Virus record (IMG/VR): IMGVR_UViG_2645727810_000023
Coordinates: 1 to 17,891 of that record
Strand: one strand, 5' to 3'
Length of the DNA stretch: 17,891 nucleotides
DNA from: a virus
Taxonomy: Duplodnaviria; Heunggongvirae; Uroviricota; Caudoviricetes
The notes under the pieces: generated by a model
Seen by the model: only the letters and a program-made list of their open reading frames with translations
The model's database searches: none
Told to the model about the DNA's origin: nothing
Program-made: the position numbers and the translations under genes
Shown: in pieces, positions 1 through 10,192 of the stretch
Layout of the letters: every line of letters begins with the position of its first letter
Position numbering within the stretch: position 1 is the stretch's first letter

Positions 1-423
1 CTTCTGCATCGTCATCAACCGTTCTCTGAGGGTGAAATAATCCCGTTCAGCGGTGTCTGCCAGTCGGGGGCTGGTTGCATTATCCATGCTGGTGGGTCCG
101 GTGGCTTCACGCACGGCTGCGGAGCAACTGGCATTGACCCGCAGGCGCTTACGACCAGCGGCAACATCAGCGCGCAGAGTTTCATTTTCAGTTTTCGCAT
201 CGGCTAACTCCTTCGTGTATTTTGCATCGATCGCAGCAACATCACGCTGACGCTGCTGCATGTCAGCGATGGTGGCGGTCGCCTGCTTCAGCTCACTGAC
301 TGTGGCTTTATCACGCTGCTCTTTGTAGGCGATGGCGTTATCACGGTAATGATTAACAGCCCACGACAGGCAGACGATGATGCAGATAACCAGAGCGGAG
401 ATAATCGCGGTTACTCTGCTCAT
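1..423 (-). CDS. Rz: Rz i-spanin, 3' end truncated by window edge (about 141 codons present, no stop in window)
   Basis: ATG at 423-421 overlaps the endolysin stop (ATGA). Hand translation gives [31 protein letters not shown]..., which closely matches lambda Rz as I recall it. The frame stays open to position 1. Confidence 0.85.
15..200 (-). CDS. Rz1: Rz1 o-spanin lipoprotein, embedded in the +1 frame of Rz
   Basis: 61 aa [25 protein letters not shown]... with signal peptide plus lipobox (VSAC), Pro-rich mature part and C-terminal [13 protein letters not shown] like lambda Rz1. Lies entirely inside Rz in a different frame. Confidence 0.85.
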
Positions 424-917
424 TGTTGCCCCCACAAACAGACTTCACGCTCAATCTCGCGGCGAGTCATCAGCCCTTTCCATTGCTTACCGCCAGCGTA
501 TGTCCAGCGCCGTAGCTGATCACATGCGCCTTTGATATCGCCCTGGTTTATTTTGCGAAGAAGCGTCGATGTTCTGAAATTGCCAGCGCCCACGTTGTAA
601 ACGAACGAGTAAAGAGCGCCGCGCGTTGTTTCCGGTATATCGACGTTGATGTACGGGTTAATTTGTCTGGCGACCGTGGCAAGGTCTTTATTCAGGAGGG
701 CTTTGCATTCTGCTTCGGTATACGTTTTACCGAGCATGATGTCTTTTCCGGTGTGTCCGTGACATACAGTCCATACGCCAACGATATCTTTGTATGGTAT
801 GTAGCTGACACCTTCCAGACCATCGTTACCACCCGGACCAGTGATGAGCACAGACGCTATGGCAACAGCCCCACCACCAATAGCAGCAGCAACAGCCTTG
901 CGTAATGACGGCGACAT
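420..917 (-). CDS. R: SAR endolysin (phage-21 R-type lysozyme with N-terminal signal-anchor-release domain)
   Basis: 165 aa with Gly/Ala-rich weakly hydrophobic N-terminus ([23 protein letters not shown]) followed by a T4-lysozyme-like catalytic region. Start overlaps holin stop, stop overlaps Rz start. Confidence 0.9.
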
Positions 918-1132
918 TATTCACCTCTCGCAGCCTTACGCTTATCTTCTTTAATCTTGAAATAAAGGTTTGTCAGATACGTCAGCAGGCCAAACAGCAG
1001 ACTACCCAGCACACCTATTGCCACCCACTGGGACGGAGAGACTTTATCCAGCAACTGCAAAAACCAGTACCCGGCACTACCTGCTGAGGTGCCATAGGCG
1101 ACACCCGTTGTTAACTTATCCATGGATTTCAT
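917..1132 (-). CDS. S: Class II holin (pinholin, S21-like) with dual-start motif MKSMDK
   Basis: 71 aa, two TM segments, C-terminal [13 protein letters not shown]. The two Met codons separated by Lys-Ser give the holin/antiholin dual-start arrangement. SD GAGGTGGGG upstream. Confidence 0.9.
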
Positions 1133-1165
1133 AACCCCACCTCGCAGATGCGGGTGCTGTGTAAT

Positions 1166-1192
1166 GGAAATAAAAAGGCCACCTACGTGGCC
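1166..1192 (-). terminator. Intrinsic terminator between methyltransferase gene and holin
   Basis: Minus-strand RNA would read GGCCAC-GUAG-GUGGCC followed by UUUUUAUUU (plus-strand stem GGCCAC 1177-1182 / GTGGCC 1187-1192, A-run 1166-1176), immediately after the methylase stop at 1199-1201. Confidence 0.5.
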
Positions 1193-1198
1193 ACCAGA

Positions 1199-2251
1199 TT
1201 ATTTCCCCACCAGCTCGTTTATCTCTTTCACTGTCTGGTTAAACCGCTCTGACTCAAGCTCAACACCTAAGGCCCGACGCCCCAGCGCCATTGCTGCTTT
1301 TATTGTGGAACCGGATCCCATAAAAAAATCAGCAACCAGATCACCAGGTCGACTACTGGCATTGATTATTTGCCGGAGCATATCCGCAGGTTTCTCACAC
1401 GGATGTTTACCCGGGTAGAACTGAACGGGTTTATGCATCCAGACATCGGTATAAGGCACGGAGACTGATACGGAGAAATAGCGCCGGAGAGATTTAAACT
1501 CATCCAGCAATTCAGAATATTTGCGATTCAGTGAATCATAAGATGCCACCAGCTGGTGGTGTGGTTGTTCCAGTTGTTGTTCCTGAAACTTCTCTGCCGC
1601 TATACGGGAAAACAGTGCCTGTAACTTCCGATAGTCAGCCTCATTCGGCAACTGCCACTGACTGGCACCAAACCAGTGGGAAACCATATTTTTCTTACCT
1701 GTGGCTTCGGCAATTTGTTTTGCCGTTATACCCAGTTCGGCACGAGCATCCCTGAAATACGATATCAGCGGTGCCATTATGTGCTGTTTGAGTTCCCTTT
1801 CTTTTGCCGCATAGCCGTCACTTTTGCCACGATATGGCCCCTGGTAATGTTCAGCAAACAGAACGCGCTCTGTGGCAGGAAAATATGCGCGCAGACTTTC
1901 TTTATTACACCCATTCCAACGTCCGGACGGCTTCGCCCAGATGATATGGTTAAGCACGTTGAAACGTTCACGCATCATGATCTCAATATCAGATGCCAGG
2001 CGATGCCCACAGAACAGGTAAAGACTTCCGGCAGGTTTCAGCACCCGCCAGAACTGCGCCAGACACTGGTCCTGCCACTTCAGGTAATCATCGTCGCCCT
2101 TCCACTGGTTATCCCAGCCCTCGGGCTTCACTTTAAAGTACGGCGGGTCCGTGACTATCAGGTCAACAGAATTTTCGGGTAACGACCGGATAAATTCCAG
2201 GCAGTCGGCGTTGACTAACTCACAACTGGATATTTTTACAGTATTAAGCAT
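1199..2251 (-). CDS. DNA N6-adenine (or N4-cytosine) methyltransferase, beta class (DPPY motif IV near N-terminus, FxGxG motif I near C-terminus)
   Basis: 350 aa; TDPPYF at about residue 35 and FFMGSGST at about residue 312, the circularly permuted order typical of beta-class amino-MTases. No adjacent restriction endonuclease candidate seen. Confidence 0.85.
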   Translation of the reverse strand: MLNTVKISSCELVNADCLEFIRSLPENSVDLIVTDPPYFKVKPEGWDNQWKGDDDYLKWQDQCLAQFWRVLKPAGSLYLFCGHRLASDIEIMMRERFNVLNHIIWAKPSGRWNGCNKESLRAYFPATERVLFAEHYQGPYRGKSDGYAAKERELKQHIMAPLISYFRDARAELGITAKQIAEATGKKNMVSHWFGASQWQLPNEADYRKLQALFSRIAAEKFQEQQLEQPHHQLVASYDSLNRKYSELLDEFKSLRRYFSVSVSVPYTDVWMHKPVQFYPGKHPCEKPADMLRQIINASSRPGDLVADFFMGSGSTIKAAMALGRRALGVELESERFNQTVKEINELVGK

Positions 2252-2401
2252 GGATCATTAAGCCTGTCTCTGATAGGCTCATTCTGCTTTTGCGCAAAGC
2301 AGTGGGCCTGAGGTTTGCTTGTGATCCGGACGCATGAGCAGATGGCTGGTGAGTGCCCCTAACACCCACCAGTCGCCCATTTACCACAAATAAAAAAGCC
2401 T

Positions 2402-2599
2402 TCAGGACTGAAGGCGTCTGTAACAACCGAACTGATAGTCTGCCAGACCCGCCATAACAAGCTGGGTCAGTATTAACTGGCAGCGTTCGCGTGAAAGGTA
2501 AGTATTCTGCGCAATCTCCCCGACTGTCGCCGGTTCGGTGACGCTTAATTCATTAAACACCACTCTGGCGGTTTCTGTCATATCCTGCTGTTTCAGCAT
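2402..2599 (-). CDS. Small hypothetical protein, possible winged-helix DNA-binding fold (alternative upstream start at 2692)
   Basis: ORF track gives 96 aa from 2692. The internal ATG at 2599 (MLKQQDMTETARVVF...) has an AAGGGA SD-like sequence about 9 nt upstream and lies downstream of the terminator at 2721-2743. Confidence 0.4.
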   Translation of the reverse strand: MLKQQDMTETARVVFNELSVTEPATVGEIAQNTYLSRERCQLILTQLVMAGLADYQFGCYRRLQS

Positions 2600-2720
2600 G
2601 TCTTTTTCCCTTTTTCGGTTAACGTGACACACCAATAACTCTTGTCGAAAAAGCCAGCAAGCTGAAAGACAGGTATTCACCGCCACCAGCACGTTTACTG
2701 TACTGGACCGATTTCAGCCA

Positions 2721-2743
2721 TAAAAAAACCCGCTCGCGGCGGG
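2721..2743 (-). terminator. Intrinsic terminator about 70 nt downstream of the Q-like gene (tR'-like position)
   Basis: Minus-strand RNA: CCCGC-CGCGA-GCGGG followed by UUUUUUUA (plus-strand A-run 2722-2728, stem 2729-2733 / 2739-2743). Confidence 0.6.
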
Positions 2744-2830
2744 TTTAAGCTGTGTGGCGAAGTAACCACTCTTAACATACTGACATACTTTTTGCGGACC
2801 GCACTAATCATTTTTTACTTTTTTAGCAGC
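2744..2830 (-). promoter_or_regulatory. Probable late promoter / Q-utilisation region (exact -35/-10 not resolved)
   Basis: Position only: interval between the 3' end of the Q-like gene and the tR'-like terminator. Candidate -10-like hexamers (TATGTT, TAAAAAAT on the minus strand) are present but no convincing -35. Confidence 0.3.
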
Positions 2831-3195
2831 CAGTCGTCCATCTCCAGTCTTACCCCCAGCACAGACAAACATCCGTCAATAAACCCTTCGGCTATCTGCA
2901 TCTCAATTCGTATTGCTTTTTCGCTTTTCTTTCTCTTCCTGGCTATCTGTCTTTTTGATATTCGCAACAAATAATGAGCAATGAGAAGCGAATACTCCTC
3001 AGGTTTTTTCTGCTTCAGACGAGCAAGACAGTTTTCAATGATAAGTCCGTCATCATCGCAGCAGGCCGGACGTGGTTTAGTGGCAGATGGTAAAAGTCCT
3101 TTGAATCCGGCAGCGATCGGAGAATAGTCCACCCCGGTGTTACCACTTGCAGCCCATGCCCCCCAGCGTTCAAGAACCATCTGAATATCACGCAT
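2815..3195 (-). CDS. Q: Late-gene antiterminator Q-like protein (phage 21 / DLP12 QuuD-like family)
   Basis: About 126 aa starting MRDIQMVLERWGAWAA... with GGAGA SD 8 nt upstream of ATG at 3195 (ORF track start 3210 is a TTG). Sits directly upstream of the tR'-like terminator and lysis genes. Family assignment from recalled similarity, not searched. Confidence 0.7.
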   Translation of the reverse strand: MRDIQMVLERWGAWAASGNTGVDYSPIAAGFKGLLPSATKPRPACCDDDGLIIENCLARLKQKKPEEYSLLIAHYLLRISKRQIARKRKKSEKAIRIEMQIAEGFIDGCLSVLGVRLEMDDWLLKK

Positions 3196-3212
3196 CAACT
3201 TTCTCCACAAAA

Positions 3213-4208
3213 TCAGGACAGCACACCAATCGCCAGCGCGCGATCGATAAAACGAAATATCAGCTCCAGTTGGGAACCATACTTCTCTTCAAATGCCACG
3301 GTATCCGCATGCAGTTCGTCATGGTGTTTTCTGCACAAAGGCAACACAAAAAGGTCATGCGCTTTTGTACCCATTCCACCCTGACCATGACCAATCAGGT
3401 GATGAGGATCGTCGGCTGGCTTACCACAACATGCACACGGCTGCGTCTTAACCCAGCGCGTGTACTTTTCATTAACCCAGCGACGACGTTTGGGGCGTAA
3501 CATAAAAGACTCCGGCGACTCCGGATCCACTTTCAGCGCCAGCACCTTTTTCGCCTTATCCCGGATGATGCTGGTGGCAGGAACCGAAGGCACAAGGTCA
3601 CTTTCCCGGGTGACAGACGGCACAACAGGCTTCGGTAATCTCAGTGCCTTACGGGCTGCACTTTCCGGTAAGGCATCCGCCAGGTCATTACGAACCAGCC
3701 ACCAGCACAGTTCCGGCATTGTCACAACGTGACTGTCATCAAAACCGAGATCCCGACGCACAACAGACAACACCCAGCGGGCACAGTTATCCGTTGCCAT
3801 TGATTCCAGACGTTCCGTGAACTGATCGCGAAGCAGGTTATCGCAGTGCCAGCACAGACGGATTGCGCCCGGCGCGTGTCGCATTGTGGTCATGTTCTCG
3901 CTGTGCCATCCGGAATGAGGCCACTGGCAGCCTTTTTCACGAAGTAACCAGCTCTCAAGGCATTCCACACCACCAGCACGACGGATCACCGCCTCATGGC
4001 GGAACACGGCCCGAACGGCAGGATCATCCGCCAGCGGTTGTGATGCTGCCGGAACGACACCACTGGCAAAAGATGAATAACGTTCCGGCTCAGGCTCCAG
4101 CAGGACACGCCCCTGCATAAACAGGGGCATCAGCTCTGAACCGGGTCTGAACAAGACGATCCCCATACGCGGGGCAATTTCAGGGGTCAGCAGTGCTCTC
4201 ACGGTCAC
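3213..4208 (-). CDS. DUF968-like protein with C-terminal Cys/His cluster (YdfU-like, nin-region protein)
   Basis: 331 aa; C-terminus PCACCGKPADDPHHLIGHGQGG...FVLPLCRKHHDELH resembles the conserved Cys/His motif of the DUF968 family. Start codon uncertain (GTG at 4208 or ATG at 4166, neither with a clear SD). Confidence 0.6.
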   Translation of the reverse strand: MTVRALLTPEIAPRMGIVLFRPGSELMPLFMQGRVLLEPEPERYSSFASGVVPAASQPLADDPAVRAVFRHEAVIRRAGGVECLESWLLREKGCQWPHSGWHSENMTTMRHAPGAIRLCWHCDNLLRDQFTERLESMATDNCARWVLSVVRRDLGFDDSHVVTMPELCWWLVRNDLADALPESAARKALRLPKPVVPSVTRESDLVPSVPATSIIRDKAKKVLALKVDPESPESFMLRPKRRRWVNEKYTRWVKTQPCACCGKPADDPHHLIGHGQGGMGTKAHDLFVLPLCRKHHDELHADTVAFEEKYGSQLELIFRFIDRALAIGVLS

Positions 4209-4254
4209 CTCAGCGAACGGTATTGCATGAACGCAGGAGAAAAAAATTCAGCCA

Positions 4255-4512
4255 TCACGCAGTAAACTCCTTCACCAGCGTTTCAAACTGGCTTACCTGT
4301 CCTTCCAGTTCCTCCACGCAATCCACCAGCTCATCCACCGCCTTTTGTGTACGGTGTTTTGCCTGCAGCAGATCACGAAGCGCCGGAGTAAGCTGCTTGC
4401 GGAGCGTATCTTTTGCCACGCTCGTTTTTTCCATCTGTTCAGCACAACGAAGCATCTCCTGCGCCTGCCGACGAAGTTGTTCCGGTGAAACAGTGGTTGT
4501 TCTGTTGTTCAA
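4255..4512 (-). CDS. Hypothetical small coiled-coil protein
   Basis: 85 aa ORF whose start (TTG at 4512, alternative internal ATG) overlaps the helicase stop. Charged helical composition. Function unknown. Confidence 0.45.
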   Translation of the reverse strand: MNNRTTTVSPEQLRRQAQEMLRCAEQMEKTSVAKDTLRKQLTPALRDLLQAKHRTQKAVDELVDCVEELEGQVSQFETLVKEFTA

Positions 4513-5909
4513 AATAAACGCTCCGTTTTACTGCCCGACATGCGGTTATTGCTGTATCTGCGCGGATTGCCCGGCGTCATGGGTGTGGAAAGAACCCGGG
4601 CACTCTCCTGGTCCACAGGCAGAAAATGTCCGTTATGAAAACGCCGGTAAATGGTCCCGAGCGTGCCATTACGCTGTTTCGTGATGTTGATTTCTGCTAT
4701 GCCTCTGGCCTGAGTTTCCGGGTTGTATACCTCATCCCTGTAAAGCATCAGAATGATGTCGGCATCCGCCTCGATTTCCCCGGAGTTTTTCAGGTCCGAG
4801 TTCATTGGGCGTTTATTGGGTCTGGATTCCACGCCGCGGGAGAGCTGGCTCAGAGCAATCAGCGGAAAACCGCCGGATTTTGCCAGGCTTTTAAGTCCCT
4901 TTGAGATTTCCCCCACCGCAAGGTCGTGACGCCCCGTGCTGCGGGTTTTAATCAGGCCGAGGTAATCGACCACCACCAGCGCCGTTTCCGGGTGTTTCAT
5001 CCGGTGGTGCTTCGTGGTTGCACATATCTCATCAATGGTCAGGTTTGCCTGGTCCACCATCCAGATATTACGCCCCGTCATTCGTCCCACGCCCTGCGAG
5101 AAACGCGCCCAGTCTTCATCTTCAAAACGGGCAACAGACTTAAGACGGGATACCGGCATTCCACCGGCAGCAGACACCATACGTTCACCAATCTGGATGT
5201 TCGCCATCTCCATGGTGAACAGAAGCACGCCATGCCCCTGCTCAGTCACCTTGTCGATGATGTCCAGCGCAAGTTCGGTTTTCCCCATCGAAGGACGGGC
5301 GGCAATGAATACCAGGTCTCCGGGCTCCATACCGCCCGTTTTTGCGTCCAGTTCATCAATACCGGTCATCAGCGCCCTGGATTTCTCCAGTCCCTGATTG
5401 CGGCATTCAACACGGTCGACCACTTCCGGAAGGACATCATCAATGTGAACCGGCTGAATGACGCCCTTTCCGGTCGACAGTGAGGCCATCATGTTCTGCA
5501 CATCCTTCAGGGCATCCTCGGCTGCTTCACAGGTATACGCATCACGTAAATTCTGTAATGCTTCAGTCAGTGTTTTTTCTGCATCGCGCAGTGCGGCATT
5601 GCGCCGCAACGCTGCGACATAGTGCTCCAGTGAAGACTTCACCCAGGTTTTGCGTCCGGTGTCGGTAATCACCGGGGCAAGTTCCGGCATCTCATTGCAC
5701 AGCAGTACGGGGTCAATGACGCCGGATATGCGAGCCTGTCTGCAAATCCCCGCGTAAATATCCCGGTACTGACGCACAAAAAATACATCCGCCGGAAGTG
5801 TGGCCAGAATATCCATCACTTCCGGATCGGCCCCACGCAGAAAAAACGCACCGATGACAGCGCCTTCCAGGTCATCGTTACGCCATGCCGGGGTGTTCTG
5901 GCTGGTCAT
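4509..5909 (-). CDS. Replicative DNA helicase, DnaB family
   Basis: 466 aa; Walker A ARPSMGKTELALDI, conserved DnaB C-terminal motifs (LIALSQLSRGVESRPNKRPMNSDLKNSGEIEADADIILMLYRDEVY). GGAGG SD; ATG overlaps stop of upstream gene. Confidence 0.9.
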   Translation of the reverse strand: MTSQNTPAWRNDDLEGAVIGAFFLRGADPEVMDILATLPADVFFVRQYRDIYAGICRQARISGVIDPVLLCNEMPELAPVITDTGRKTWVKSSLEHYVAALRRNAALRDAEKTLTEALQNLRDAYTCEAAEDALKDVQNMMASLSTGKGVIQPVHIDDVLPEVVDRVECRNQGLEKSRALMTGIDELDAKTGGMEPGDLVFIAARPSMGKTELALDIIDKVTEQGHGVLLFTMEMANIQIGERMVSAAGGMPVSRLKSVARFEDEDWARFSQGVGRMTGRNIWMVDQANLTIDEICATTKHHRMKHPETALVVVDYLGLIKTRSTGRHDLAVGEISKGLKSLAKSGGFPLIALSQLSRGVESRPNKRPMNSDLKNSGEIEADADIILMLYRDEVYNPETQARGIAEINITKQRNGTLGTIYRRFHNGHFLPVDQESARVLSTPMTPGNPRRYSNNRMSGSKTERLF

Positions 5910-8325: not shown

Positions 8326-8516
8326 GGACGCACCTCCGCCGTAGTTACGTATTTAACCGGGCTACCTTTCATTGAGATGGTTTCACACATCTCTGCCGCT
8401 TTCAGTTCCGCTGTTTTTCTGGATTTATAGCGACGGTGCCAGACAGATACATCCGTGCGAACTGATACATCGTTTCTGTATTCCGTAGTGGAGATGATGA
8501 TTTCGTAACTAATCAT
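8322..8516 (-). CDS. Hypothetical protein
   Basis: 64 aa; ATG at 8516 with AGGAGG SD, ATGA overlap with the Rha-like gene stop. Confidence 0.5.
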   Translation of the reverse strand: MISYEIIISTTEYRNDVSVRTDVSVWHRRYKSRKTAELKAAEMCETISMKGSPVKYVTTAEVRP

Positions 8517-9376
8517 GGGCGAACCTCCTTGTCAGAACCATTCAGCCTGGAATCAACAAGTGCAGCGCCAAAAACAGCATCACCAACACGGTCGTACAGT
8601 TTGCTAGCCAGCGGAGATTCAACGGCCTTAAGCATTGGATAAAGCTGGCTTGTCCAGATTTGATGGATTTCACGCAAATGCAGGTATACGCCTCTGGCGT
8701 TTCGTGCGACAGCTGACATATCAGACGCATCGGCACCTGATAAACTCTTCTCCATCAGGTTAAAGGCGTTGATGTATGCCTCTTTGAACCGGGCAGCACG
8801 TTTACCCGTGAAACCCATAGCAAGAAATGCAAAACCGTCTCGTGTGATTTGATAGCAAGGGAGCTTGCGTGTACCGCCGTTCGGTTGATTTACCGAAATC
8901 GATGTCTCCGCAAAATTGCGGGCACAAAACTCAGGGGAACAATCCAGAGTGCGGATCTTTTTCAGCACATCGTCGTGACGCTTGGAGAAGAAGTTGGCAA
9001 CAGCCAAAGAAGTGGTAACGGCCTGGCCGTTGTCAATGGTGATTTCAGGTTGAGTGAGGGCTGGGATCGTAGCCATGATGGCAGCCTCCGTTGACAGTGA
9101 AAAACTTCCACCACCGGAAACGCCAATTTCACTGGTGGTGAACTGGACGGGGTTGGCGTAACCGGCGTCAACGGAGACCGGCGCACCTTTCGGTGCCCCC
9201 GCCCAGCCCACCATAATCTGGATGTGAGCAAATGCGGACGATAAAAAAGACGCTGGCGCGTCATACATCGCCGTTGACAATTTCAGGACGCCAATCCCGG
9301 CACCCGCTTTATAAGGTGCAGAGACAGTGTAACGTCCCGAAATTGCAGAATCAATATTTGGTCTTGAAATGATCAT
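8513..9376 (-). CDS. Rha-family (ORF6N / Bro-N-like) phage regulatory protein, with N-terminal extension or alternative internal start at 9076
   Basis: C-terminal 187 aa carry FSKRHDDVLKKIRTL...CYQITRDGFAFLAMGFTGKRAARFKEAYINAFNLME, typical of Rha/ORF6N. Internal ATG at 9076 has a GGAGG SD; the ATG at 9376 has none. The upstream 100 codons still show E. coli-like codon choice. Confidence 0.65.
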   Translation of the reverse strand: MIISRPNIDSAISGRYTVSAPYKAGAGIGVLKLSTAMYDAPASFLSSAFAHIQIMVGWAGAPKGAPVSVDAGYANPVQFTTSEIGVSGGGSFSLSTEAAIMATIPALTQPEITIDNGQAVTTSLAVANFFSKRHDDVLKKIRTLDCSPEFCARNFAETSISVNQPNGGTRKLPCYQITRDGFAFLAMGFTGKRAARFKEAYINAFNLMEKSLSGADASDMSAVARNARGVYLHLREIHQIWTSQLYPMLKAVESPLASKLYDRVGDAVFGAALVDSRLNGSDKEVRP

Positions 9377-9459: not shown

Positions 9460-9485
9460 GAGCCGGGTTACTCCCGGCTTTTTTT
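9460..9485 (+). terminator. Plus-strand intrinsic terminator inside the minus-strand early operon
   Basis: GCCGGG (9462-9467) - TTACT - CCCGGC (9473-9478) followed by TTTTTTT (9479-9485). The reverse complement lacks a downstream U-run. Confidence 0.5.
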
Positions 9486-10192
9486 CACCGCTGCCAACCA
9501 ATAACCTGAAATAACCCCATTTTCGGGTGATACCAGCGAGTCCCTCGCGGTTCTGCTTCCTCCATAACCCGATAAAAAGCAGCCATAAACGGTTCCACAG
9601 CAACAATTGCGCGACGTGACAACAATCCGTCCGGCGTCATGAACTCATGTGTGTCTGTAGGAATTTGATAGGCGTTCACCAGATTGCGGCATTTATCATC
9701 TGACAAACCGGTTTTTGCTTTCAGTTGGCGATATCCGGCATAGCCCTCACGAATAGTGCCCTTTTTAATTTGCTCGACTGTTTCAGCAACGTGGCTGACT
9801 TTTTCTTCCACCTGAGTGATCCGTTTCTGTTGGCGAACGGCTTCAAGAGCCATCGCGGCAACCATTTCGATTTCGCTCATTGGCTTACGGATCTGTTCTT
9901 CCAGTTCGCGCCAGCGATCTACCAGGCGAGCAGTGAATTCAGGACAGAGCTGTGCGACGACAATGATGCTGTCGCGCTTACCTCGTTCACCTTCGAATAC
10001 ATACGCGCTAGAAAATCGGCGAGGCCCAAGTGATTGTTTATTCTCAATTTCCACAGTCTGTGGAAATTGGATGATTCCCTTTTTAGCCAGTGTTTCAATA
10101 GTTCTCTTAACACTATCTGGTCGGCTTCCCACCAGCTCTGCGATCTCAACGCTGGTCATGGATGCTTTGCCGTTAAAAATTGCGGTGTTCAT
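9485..10192 (-). CDS. Putative phage regulatory / antirepressor-like protein (Rha/Bro-N-like N-terminus)
   Basis: 235 aa; N-terminal SVEIAELVGSRPDSVKRTIETL resembles the DNA-binding start of Rha-type proteins. AGGAG SD; ATG overlaps cro-like stop (ATGA). Confidence 0.5.
   Translation of the reverse strand: MNTAIFNGKASMTSVEIAELVGSRPDSVKRTIETLAKKGIIQFPQTVEIENKQSLGPRRFSSAYVFEGERGKRDSIIVVAQLCPEFTARLVDRWRELEEQIRKPMSEIEMVAAMALEAVRQQKRITQVEEKVSHVAETVEQIKKGTIREGYAGYRQLKAKTGLSDDKCRNLVNAYQIPTDTHEFMTPDGLLSRRAIVAVEPFMAAFYRVMEEAEPRGTRWYHPKMGLFQVIGWQR

Follow-up and report, generated by a model that had tools for sequence, protein, structure and literature searches.

An M.EcoGII-family adenine methylase cassette in the late-operon leader of lambdoid prophages carries a conserved structured RNA leader

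What is a DNA methylase gene doing between the antiterminator gene Q and the lysis genes of a prophage, and how would the phage keep such an enzyme in check? The question is raised by the IMG/VR virus record IMGVR_UViG_2645727810_000023, whose 17,891 nucleotides (hereafter, the window) carry a beta-class amino-methyltransferase gene at this site. An earlier note, made from the letters alone, had described the gene together with two flanking intrinsic terminators, a small upstream open reading frame (ORF) and a palindrome. We find all of these features on the minus strand, in the same places to within a few bases, with Q and the holin gene as the outer neighbours. Our analysis makes it probable that the island belongs to a widespread cargo cassette of the late-operon leader. 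Its product would be a late-made, non-specific adenine methylase with an anti-restriction role, and translation of the methylase would be gated by a conserved leader in its mRNA. The island itself is ordinary: the cassette is common and already described in prophages, and enzymes of this family have been studied and are presented in the literature as research tools, to which the island adds little. The conserved structured leader, which is apparently undescribed, provides a modest new lead.

The methylase matches the Pfam family N6_N4_Mtase (PF01555) at 146 bits, against a cut-off of 26.7. It has DPPY at residues 35–38 (positions 2149–2138) and FFMGSGS at residues 309–315 (1327–1307), the motif order of the beta class, as had been proposed. 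Aligned end to end with M.EcoGII (350 versus 349 aa), it is 83.6% identical overall; the N-terminal catalytic part reaches 96% and the recognition domain 76.9%. These identities are approximate, since the reference sequences came from the machine-read supplement of PMC11551740, whose Table S1 gives M.EcoGII with small reading errors. Identity to the reconstructed ancestor Anc291 amounts to 87.9% overall and 86% in the target-recognition domain, and identity to SUPREM to 69.7% over the whole length, target-recognition domain included. By these comparisons, the enzyme is an M.EcoGII-family beta-class N6-adenine methyltransferase. A PDB sequence search returned only distant beta-class relatives and no M.EcoGII structure. 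M.EcoGII methylates adenine in any context, acting without site specificity on DNA and RNA, and also accepts single-stranded DNA and DNA:RNA hybrids (PMC5778455); Anc291 and SUPREM methylate adenine in both DNA and RNA and are reported to be largely non-sequence-specific on RNA (PMC11551740). By extrapolation from these relatives, we infer that the methylase of the window likewise modifies adenine in any sequence context.

M.EcoGI and M.EcoGII of E. coli O104:H4 C227-11 (Murray et al. 2018, PMC5778455) share with this enzyme the length class, the order of DPPY, recognition domain and FxGxG, the prophage location and the orphan state. The same paper names phage 1720a-02 as the carrier of a very similar enzyme (PMC5778455), and this phage shares the window's Q gene, small ORF and leader at 95–99% DNA identity. 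Unlike M.EcoGII, the present allele has a recognition domain and C-terminal part of the cdtI/SfV subtype, ~77% identical to those of M.EcoGII, because the gene is recombinant: ~2251–2050 resemble the Stx-phage type and ~2050–1199 the type of phage cdtI. The two tracts extend beyond the gene. From 2850 to ~2050, which covers the Q side, the small ORF, the leader and the first ~70–100 methylase codons, the window is 93–99% identical to the Stx-phage type of 1720a-02. From ~2050 to 1100, across the rest of the methylase, the downstream terminator and the holin, it is 97–100% identical to phage cdtI. The recombination junction falls inside the methylase gene at about 1950–2050 (minus strand).

A partner endonuclease was looked for and none was found among the larger window ORFs, which were scanned by Pfam and two of which had no match. 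PADLOC matched methyltransferase models only, and the neighbouring genes encode Q, a winged-helix protein and a holin. These results support the assignment as an orphan beta-class amino-methyltransferase, in line with the earlier statement that no cognate restriction enzyme is visible.

When would the enzyme be made? M.EcoGI and M.EcoGII are prophage genes that are not expressed in the normally growing lysogen; their constitutive expression impairs growth, and induction of the prophage was proposed to switch them on (PMC5778455). Homologues at 92–94% amino-acid similarity in two O111 strains yielded no detectable methylation or motif in the lysogen methylomes (PMC6602927), and a review pairs M.EcoGII with Mom of phage Mu as silent in lysogens and toxic (PMC12707154). 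The methylase of the window is probably silent in the lysogen as well and made only upon induction; late-only expression is consistent with the terminator upstream of the cassette and with a promoter scan that found none. The Q-dependent expression put forward in the earlier note is most plausibly right. The experiment suggested there, a methylome comparison of lysogen and cured strain, would probably find nothing, and because M.EcoGII-family enzymes are silent or motif-less in lysogens, a negative lysogen methylome would refute nothing. The right place to look for methylation is virion DNA after induction.

Megablast matched the 1.75-kb segment to phages SfV, cdtI, phiP27 and 1720a-02 and to many Stx2a, Stx2c and Stx2d phages. 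Among 5426 complete E. coli genomes, 2111 (~40%) contain no less than 80% of the segment. Shigella phage SfV (NC_003444, orf47–orf48), cdtI, phiP27, 1720a-02 and Stx2a phages with the qO111 antiterminator allele show the same order of terminator, small ORF, methylase and terminator, placed between Q and the lysis or stx genes (PMC8456039, PMC3491183), at 83–93% DNA identity to the window. Homology to SfV starts exactly at T1, the upstream terminator, and stops just short of the holin, and the SfV record annotates orf47, orf48 and rho-independent terminators on both flanks; SfV differs from the window in its Q, which lacks detectable similarity, and in having a holin of another type. The window's Q is 98–99% identical (tblastn) to that of 1720a-02 and of the Stx2a phage Stx2_14040, in both of which the genes run Q, small ORF, methylase, stx2. 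Stx phages differ from the window in what follows the methylase, namely tRNA genes and stx2 instead of a terminator and holin. In Stx2_14040 these are tRNA genes and stx2AB; in the 1720a-02 record, stx2A is truncated and replaced by a resistance marker, and no tRNAs are annotated. As the same small ORF and methylase stand between Q and tRNA-stx2 in many Stx2a, Stx2c and Stx2d phages (PMC8456039), the cassette accompanies the toxin genes and is no substitute for them, contrary to the suggestion that the methylase takes the place of stx.

We compiled a set of 80 loci, one per species, which reach from Escherichia to Xenorhabdus, Proteus and Gilliamella. In 52 of them, the ORF immediately upstream of the methylase is the small one. 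The nearest larger upstream gene is a Q of one family or another (PF06530 in 31, Q-like DUF1133 in 21, PF03589 in nine and PF06323 in five; 70 loci, with counts that can overlap), and the next gene downstream is mostly a holin, from many unrelated families. This supports the view that the cassette lives in the late-operon leader regardless of the type of Q.

The cassette is organised around intrinsic terminators. By position, T1 is its left edge and T3 its right edge; these are the two that had been proposed, and a third, T2, had been missed (Table 1). All three consist of a G+C-rich hairpin followed by a U-tract, with a position that is kept across relatives. T1 and T3 were the two top-ranked terminator-like sites in a 5-kb scan, which returned 15 such sites compared with 5.1 ± 2.3 in shuffles. 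Ahead of the small ORF, 46 of the 52 loci have a T1-like terminator, in the form of 40 distinct hairpin sequences; 31 of the 52 have a T2-like hairpin (24 distinct sequences); and of the 11 loci in which a phage-21-type holin comes directly after the methylase, 10 have a T3-like terminator behind the methylase gene. Since the elements are conserved in place despite sequence change, real terminators are supported, beyond what chance would give. The T2 hairpin overlaps the stop codon of the small ORF (2404–2402 lie inside it) and, in the E. coli-like group, always starts 9–13 nt before the end of the stop codon; a ribosome terminating on the small ORF could disturb formation of this hairpin.

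The interval between the Q stop codon and T1 spans only ~70 nt (2747..2814, minus strand); we infer that both the late promoter pR′ and the Q-utilisation site must be located in it. It contains a tandem GTATGT repeat and a box TGTTAAGAGTGGTTACTT, candidates for the late promoter and the Q-loading site. Three other loci, with phage-21-family Q proteins that are 54–75% identical, have the box in exact form or with a single mismatch. Any short terminated RNA from the candidate late promoter would measure ~45–50 nt. The layout is reminiscent of lambda tR′ with its 6S RNA and of the StxS short transcript, in which a terminator shortly 3′ of Q and the late promoter is overridden by Q-modified polymerase. 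It departs from lambda tR′ in the short distance from the Q stop codon to T1 and in the three successive terminators ahead of the lysis genes. A pR′/tR′ arrangement upstream of stx2 has been described (PMC8456039).

The scan for sigma-70-like promoters returned none on the minus strand within positions 1–5000, a weak negative given the crude consensus used, and hand inspection of the palindrome region and of a conserved block at 2653–2622 found only 3/6-type hexamers as candidates. The block lies between T1 and the small ORF and recurs from Escherichia to Proteus; it matches a sigma-70 promoter poorly, with a G where a T is expected at −7. With the scan empty and hexamers of the 3/6 type at best, sigma-70 promoters inside the cassette were rejected.

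A further conserved non-coding part of the cassette lies within the spacer between T2 and the methylase start. A leader of ~135 nt can be aligned here from Escherichia to Proteus and Morganella, with a diverged form in Gilliamella, and its insertions and deletions are not multiples of three. In divergent comparisons, leader identity is 0.53–0.79, compared with 0.38–0.49 at the third codon positions of the methylase. A covariance model found a full copy in 39 of the 80 loci, and every one of these ended at the start codon; the small ORF accompanies the leader in 25 loci and is missing from 14. In IMG/VR, 114 of 121 matches to the 5′ box of the leader have a methylase ATG 129–132 nt downstream, and three of the other seven have no downstream sequence.

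Three divergent leaders show the same two-domain architecture in their minimum free energy folds. Domain 1 is a long hairpin formed by helices P0 and P1, and domain 2 is closed by pairing of GGAUCA with UGAUCC, which abuts the methylase AUG and is referred to as the masking helix. The whole structure is 88.8% paired, versus 36–43% for slid controls. Changes on both sides occur at 7 of the 10 pairs of P1, a covariation signature. P0 is 95.6% paired and varies by wobble-type changes only, and the masking helix is 92.8% paired, with variation mostly on one side. The wobble-type pair counts in these two helices (UA 40/UG 32, GU 37/GC 35 and GU 40/AU 28) point to selection on the sense-strand RNA and not on DNA. 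Against shuffles, the three single-sequence folds scored z = −3.6, −1.2 and −4.2. The masking helix of Gilliamella is CUGGUCAU/AUGACCAG and extends over the AUG itself. With a structure supported by covariation in P1 and a fixed position 5′ of a single gene family, the element qualifies as a conserved structured mRNA leader, possibly a cis-regulatory one.

We take it that no canonical Shine-Dalgarno sequence precedes the methylase AUG and that UGAUCC is the only Shine-Dalgarno-like element. Presumably, its UGAUC is complementary to GAUCA of the 16S rRNA 3′ tail, and GGAUCAC of the leader (2322–2328) is identical to part of that tail, which is why the GGAUCA box looks like an anti-Shine-Dalgarno mimic. 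Two alternative pairings exist: UGGGC with GCCCA is 100% paired and shows a CG-to-GC swap in three Gilliamella sequences, and GCUCAUG with CACAAGC (P2alt) shows a UA-to-CG change in 25 sequences. Both are incompatible with P0, which makes a switch between two states possible, though unproven.

The palindrome that had been singled out upstream of the methylase is present (CTGCTTT-GCGCA-AAAGCAG, with a 7-bp stem). It is not a free-standing element, however, and forms one helix, P3, of the leader. In four lineages, the symmetry of P3 extends across its centre (AGCGCT, TGTGCACA, TACGCGTA and TGATCA). An RNA hairpin loop needs no such central dyad symmetry, so P3 may mark a DNA-level site or an RNA–RNA contact.

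At the 5′ end of the leader, the box AAAUGGGCG (2374–2380, minus strand) holds an AUG that is kept in nearly all copies. The ORF starting there runs into the P1 hairpin, is between 3 and more than 30 codons long and encodes an unconserved peptide; its translation would open P0/P1. Given the lack of a conserved peptide and the insertions and deletions out of frame, coding potential of the spacer was rejected. A pair of Trp codons in the leader is present in the E. coli type and absent from Proteus, and a likeness of CGCUCAU to lambda boxA was discarded because the Proteus type has CGCCCGU. Rfam 15 gave no match in 2252–2386 at E ≤ 1 (whole window) or E ≤ 10 (sub-region), apart from a chance-level opposite-strand long noncoding RNA, and no family on the small-ORF region or T1. 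Matches to the Trp leader and to isrK at 2720–2812 (E = 0.07 and 0.15) were driven by the terminator hairpin, lay far below the gathering scores and were set aside. A literature search by key words and literal sequence strings found no description of the leader.

In four IMG/VR contigs (L276, L314, L340 and L359), the small ORF, T2 and the P0/P1 hairpin are kept, and the remaining leader and the methylase are swapped for an AT-rich gene encoding a 237-aa protein (MVVVCSVIMVCSPINIF...). The swap takes place downstream of P1, so this hairpin acts as a cassette junction. In Photorhabdus and Xenorhabdus loci (L040–L084), the small ORF and a P1-like hairpin are kept with a spacer of just 76–101 nt; a U-tract often comes after the Xenorhabdus hairpin, which there looks like a plain terminator, not like part of a two-domain leader.

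Table 1 Features of the methylase cassette and its neighbours in the window (positions are those of the window, whose first letter is position 1)
Feature	Position	Strand	Basis or remark
DUF968/HNH gene	4208–3213	minus	First gene of the order, 5′ of Q
Q antiterminator, phage-21 family, 131 aa	3210–2815	minus	Pfam PF06530, E = 6e-53
T1, tR′-like intrinsic terminator	hairpin 2746–2726 + U-tract, whole 2719..2746	minus	AAACCCGCCGCGAGCGGGTTT + U-tract, −11.2 kcal/mol
Conserved non-coding block	2622..2653	minus	CTTGCTG, ~11 nt, GAGTTAT.GGTGTGTCAC; alignment of 23 loci
Small ORF, 65 aa, winged helix	2599–2402	minus	PHROG 331, E = 1e-37
T2, intrinsic-terminator-like hairpin	2415–2398 + U-tract, whole 2388..2415	minus	GCCTTCAGTCCTGAAGGC + TTTTTTATTT, −9.1 kcal/mol
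Non-coding spacer, ~150 nt, between T2 and methylase start		minus	Contains the structured leader 2252..2386
Structured 5′ leader of methylase mRNA, ~135 nt (predicted)	2252..2386	minus	Alignments A2, A3; covariance model
P0 (predicted)	2380–2374 with 2340–2334	minus	
Alternative pairing (predicted)	UGGGC 2379–2375 with GCCCA 2307–2303	minus	
P1 (predicted)	2372–2363 with 2355–2346	minus	
Alternative pairing P2alt (predicted)	GCUCAUG 2339–2333 with CACAAGC 2323–2317	minus	
Masking helix (predicted)	GGAUCA 2327–2322 with UGAUCC 2257–2252	minus	Abuts AUG
P3 (palindrome of the earlier note)	2302–2284	minus	
Methylase ORF, 350 aa	2251–1199	minus	Pfam N6_N4_Mtase, E = 2e-42
T3, intrinsic terminator	hairpin 1192–1177 + U-tract, whole 1168..1192	minus	GGCCACGTAGGTGGCC + TTTTTATTT, −11.1 kcal/mol
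Phage-21-type class II holin	1132–917	minus	Pfam 'Bacteriophage P21 holin S' PF04971, E = 5e-35; opens the lysis cassette
Lysozyme-family endolysin	917–420	minus	Pfam PF00959, E = 2e-45
Spanin-like ORFs	downstream of endolysin		Assigned by position alone

Taken together, the reading we favour would run as follows. In the lysogen, transcripts from the late promoter would end at T1 and nothing would be made downstream. After induction, Q-modified RNA polymerase would read through T1, T2 and T3, giving a transcript with the small winged-helix gene, the leader and the methylase, followed by holin and endolysin. The late-made methylase would then heavily methylate adenine N6 of replicating and packaged phage DNA in any sequence, and the progeny would be shielded in the next host from many adenine-methylation-sensitive restriction systems at once. 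As a second safeguard against the harmful enzyme, pairing of GGAUCA with UGAUCC beside the start codon would limit or gate translation.

Several points weigh against this account. The non-specificity of this allele is extrapolated from relatives that are only 70–88% identical, and the allele is a recombinant of two subtypes. Our limited literature search brought up no published figures for methylation of virion DNA in phages of this kind, which leaves the anti-restriction role assumed, just as the M.EcoGII paper assumes it (PMC5778455). The promoter pR′ was not located, the consensus scan having given no canonical promoter. As to the leader, strong covariation is confined to P1, the masking helix varying mostly on one side; one of the three folds is no stabler than its shuffles (z = −1.2), and the shuffle statistics are inflated by sequences related through descent. 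Moreover, the 3′ half of the leader is missing in Xenorhabdus, Photorhabdus and some Proteus and Morganella loci, which means that masking is not universal in the family.

A further-reaching proposal, for which we see a possible but rather doubtful case, is that the leader (2386–2252) represents an undescribed class of regulatory RNA that gates translation of the toxic methylase by switching between two folds. In the masked fold, P0 would be formed and GGAUCA paired with UGAUCC; in the open fold, UGGGC would pair with GCCCA and GCUCAUG with CACAAGC. The trigger would be a signal of late infection, be it a small molecule, an RNase III cut in the long P0/P1 hairpin, or a protein. The co-conserved acidic winged-helix protein could join such control: it might act as Com does on mom of phage Mu, associate with the methylase or inhibit it, or bind DNA carrying N6-methyladenine (m6A).

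In Mu, the start of the toxic DNA-modification gene mom lies buried in an RNA helix, which is opened by Com, the product of a small upstream gene. The cassette resembles com-mom in combining a harmful DNA modifier that would be silent in the lysogen and stands at the end of a cascade with a small ORF upstream and a start codon in an RNA helix, which is predicted here. It differs in several ways: in place of the zinc-finger protein Com there is an acidic winged helix; the genes of the cassette do not overlap and have a terminator between them; and 14 of the 39 leader-bearing loci have no small ORF. We know of no sequence or fold relationship between com-mom and the cassette. A Com-like role of the winged-helix protein is conjecture, and its acidity and the 14 loci without it argue against a simple Com-like model. 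The parallel between Mom and M.EcoGII has itself been drawn before (PMC12707154).

Other explanations differ from the favoured one in specificity, purpose, timing or the nature of the conserved spacer. It is unlikely, in our view, that the enzyme is non-specific and late and yet serves another end, such as a mark on phage DNA that serves replication or packaging, disturbance of the host's mismatch repair or transcription, or RNA methylation in the course of the lytic programme. Heavy m6A would attract methyl-adenine-dependent restriction of the Mrr and DpnI type, so protection would not be unconditional; M.EcoGII does act on single-stranded DNA, DNA:RNA hybrids and RNA (PMC5778455), and Dam of phage P1 is required for packaging (PMC12707154). 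Yet phages can dispense with the cassette, which is absent from many lambdoid and Stx phages (PMC8456039), and its replacement by other cargo in the four IMG/VR loci fits an accessory anti-defence gene better. Highly improbable is a sequence-specific orphan methylase that is active in the lysogen as an epigenetic regulator or protects the host genome. Beta-class orphan methylases such as CcrM do have regulatory roles, some copies are labelled 'site-specific DNA-methyltransferase' by PGAP, and identity to M.EcoGII falls to 77% in the target-recognition domain. The enzyme is nearer to Anc291 in this domain (86%), though, and falls within the identity range of three tested enzymes with no or little specificity (PMC11551740). 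Activity in the lysogen sits poorly with the missing motif in lysogens carrying 92–94%-similar homologues (PMC6602927), and T1 lies between the late promoter and the gene, with no internal promoter found.

The same promoter evidence bears on the idea of an autonomous moron with its own promoter 3′ of T1, from which the small ORF, and possibly the methylase, would be expressed from the prophage independently of Q. A conserved block with a TTGCTG motif 23–55 nt upstream of the small ORF would suit such a promoter, T2 could restrict the transcript to the small ORF, and cassette edges that coincide with terminators are typical of morons. We nevertheless regard it as distinctly improbable: the best −10 candidates (TATTGG, TATCTG and TACATG) have no conserved T at −7, the scan gives no promoter, and M.EcoGI and M.EcoGII are silent in lysogens (PMC5778455). 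Under Hendrix's definition, a moron is an inserted gene that brings a promoter and a terminator of its own and is expressed in the prophage state; with no sigma-70-like site and poor −10 candidates, itself a weak negative, the 'orphan methylase moron' of the earlier note keeps its first label and, in the strict sense, loses the second. Finally, the 150-nt spacer could be conserved for a function in DNA, with P3 as the operator of a dimeric protein or the region as a recombination hotspot. The dyad of P3 through its centre in four lineages is not needed by an RNA loop, and cassette variants recombine at or near conserved blocks. That explanation is nonetheless quite unlikely, as the G–U-type changes would be A–C mismatches on the other strand or in duplex DNA, P1 covaries, the register of the leader to the start codon is fixed, and the leader, P3 included, occurs with and without the winged-helix gene (25 versus 14 loci). 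For P3 alone, the RNA and DNA readings are not mutually exclusive.

Our searches found no study of how phages restrain such a dangerous enzyme. The leader predicted to bury the start codon, the three stacked terminators and the co-conserved small acidic protein offer testable handles on this restraint. In Stx2 phages, the cassette lies upstream of stx2 on the same Q-dependent transcript, so elements that terminate, process or structure the RNA could affect toxin output.

The small ORF has its conserved start at the ATG at 2599 (MLKQQDM), upstream extensions differing among homologues. An AlphaFold2 model (pLDDT 89.7) shows the order H1-beta-H2-H3-beta-hairpin, a canonical stand-alone winged helix, and so supports the fold that had been suggested for this ORF; its role as a regulator is unproven. 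Foldseek returned only generic winged-helix domains at E ~1e-3, including IclR/MarR with TM-scores up to 0.81, along with dimerisation domains of O-methyltransferases and SelB. The Pfam match to TrmB is below threshold (18.1 versus 25.6 bits), the best NCBIfam match has E = 0.12, and PADLOC and NCBIfam gave nothing meaningful. The protein has a pI of 5.14, and 56 homologues have a median pI of 5.08 and net charge of −2.4; the family thus lacks the basic character of nucleic-acid-binding proteins, although pI and charge are suggestive only. An acidic family with a sub-threshold TrmB match makes the label 'transcriptional regulator' doubtful and leaves a DNA-binding role unproven. C40 in helix 3 and C59 in the wing are invariant in an alignment of 40 close homologues (at least 81% identity), and at least one of the two positions is unconserved in more divergent ones; invariant cysteines and a lasting negative charge are odd for a DNA-binding regulator. 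The small ORF was also considered as the partner that binds P3 as an operator. This candidate is weakened by the leader copies, P3 included, that occur without the small ORF in 14 of 39 loci, and further by Xenorhabdus and Photorhabdus, which carry the small ORF without P3, and by the acidity of the protein.

Outside the cassette, the window has the usual make-up of a lambdoid prophage, with an integrase, Ead/Ea22, a CI-like repressor, Rha/antirepressor-like proteins and DnaB-type and IstB/DnaC-like replication proteins. On the minus strand, Rfam matches above the gathering score mark a C4 antisense RNA (9131–9218, 81 bits) and isrK (9243–9319, 62 bits). They adjoin Rha/Ash-type genes (8513–9376 and 9485–10192), which suggests that the prophage contains an antirepressor region under antisense control in the style of P1/P7.

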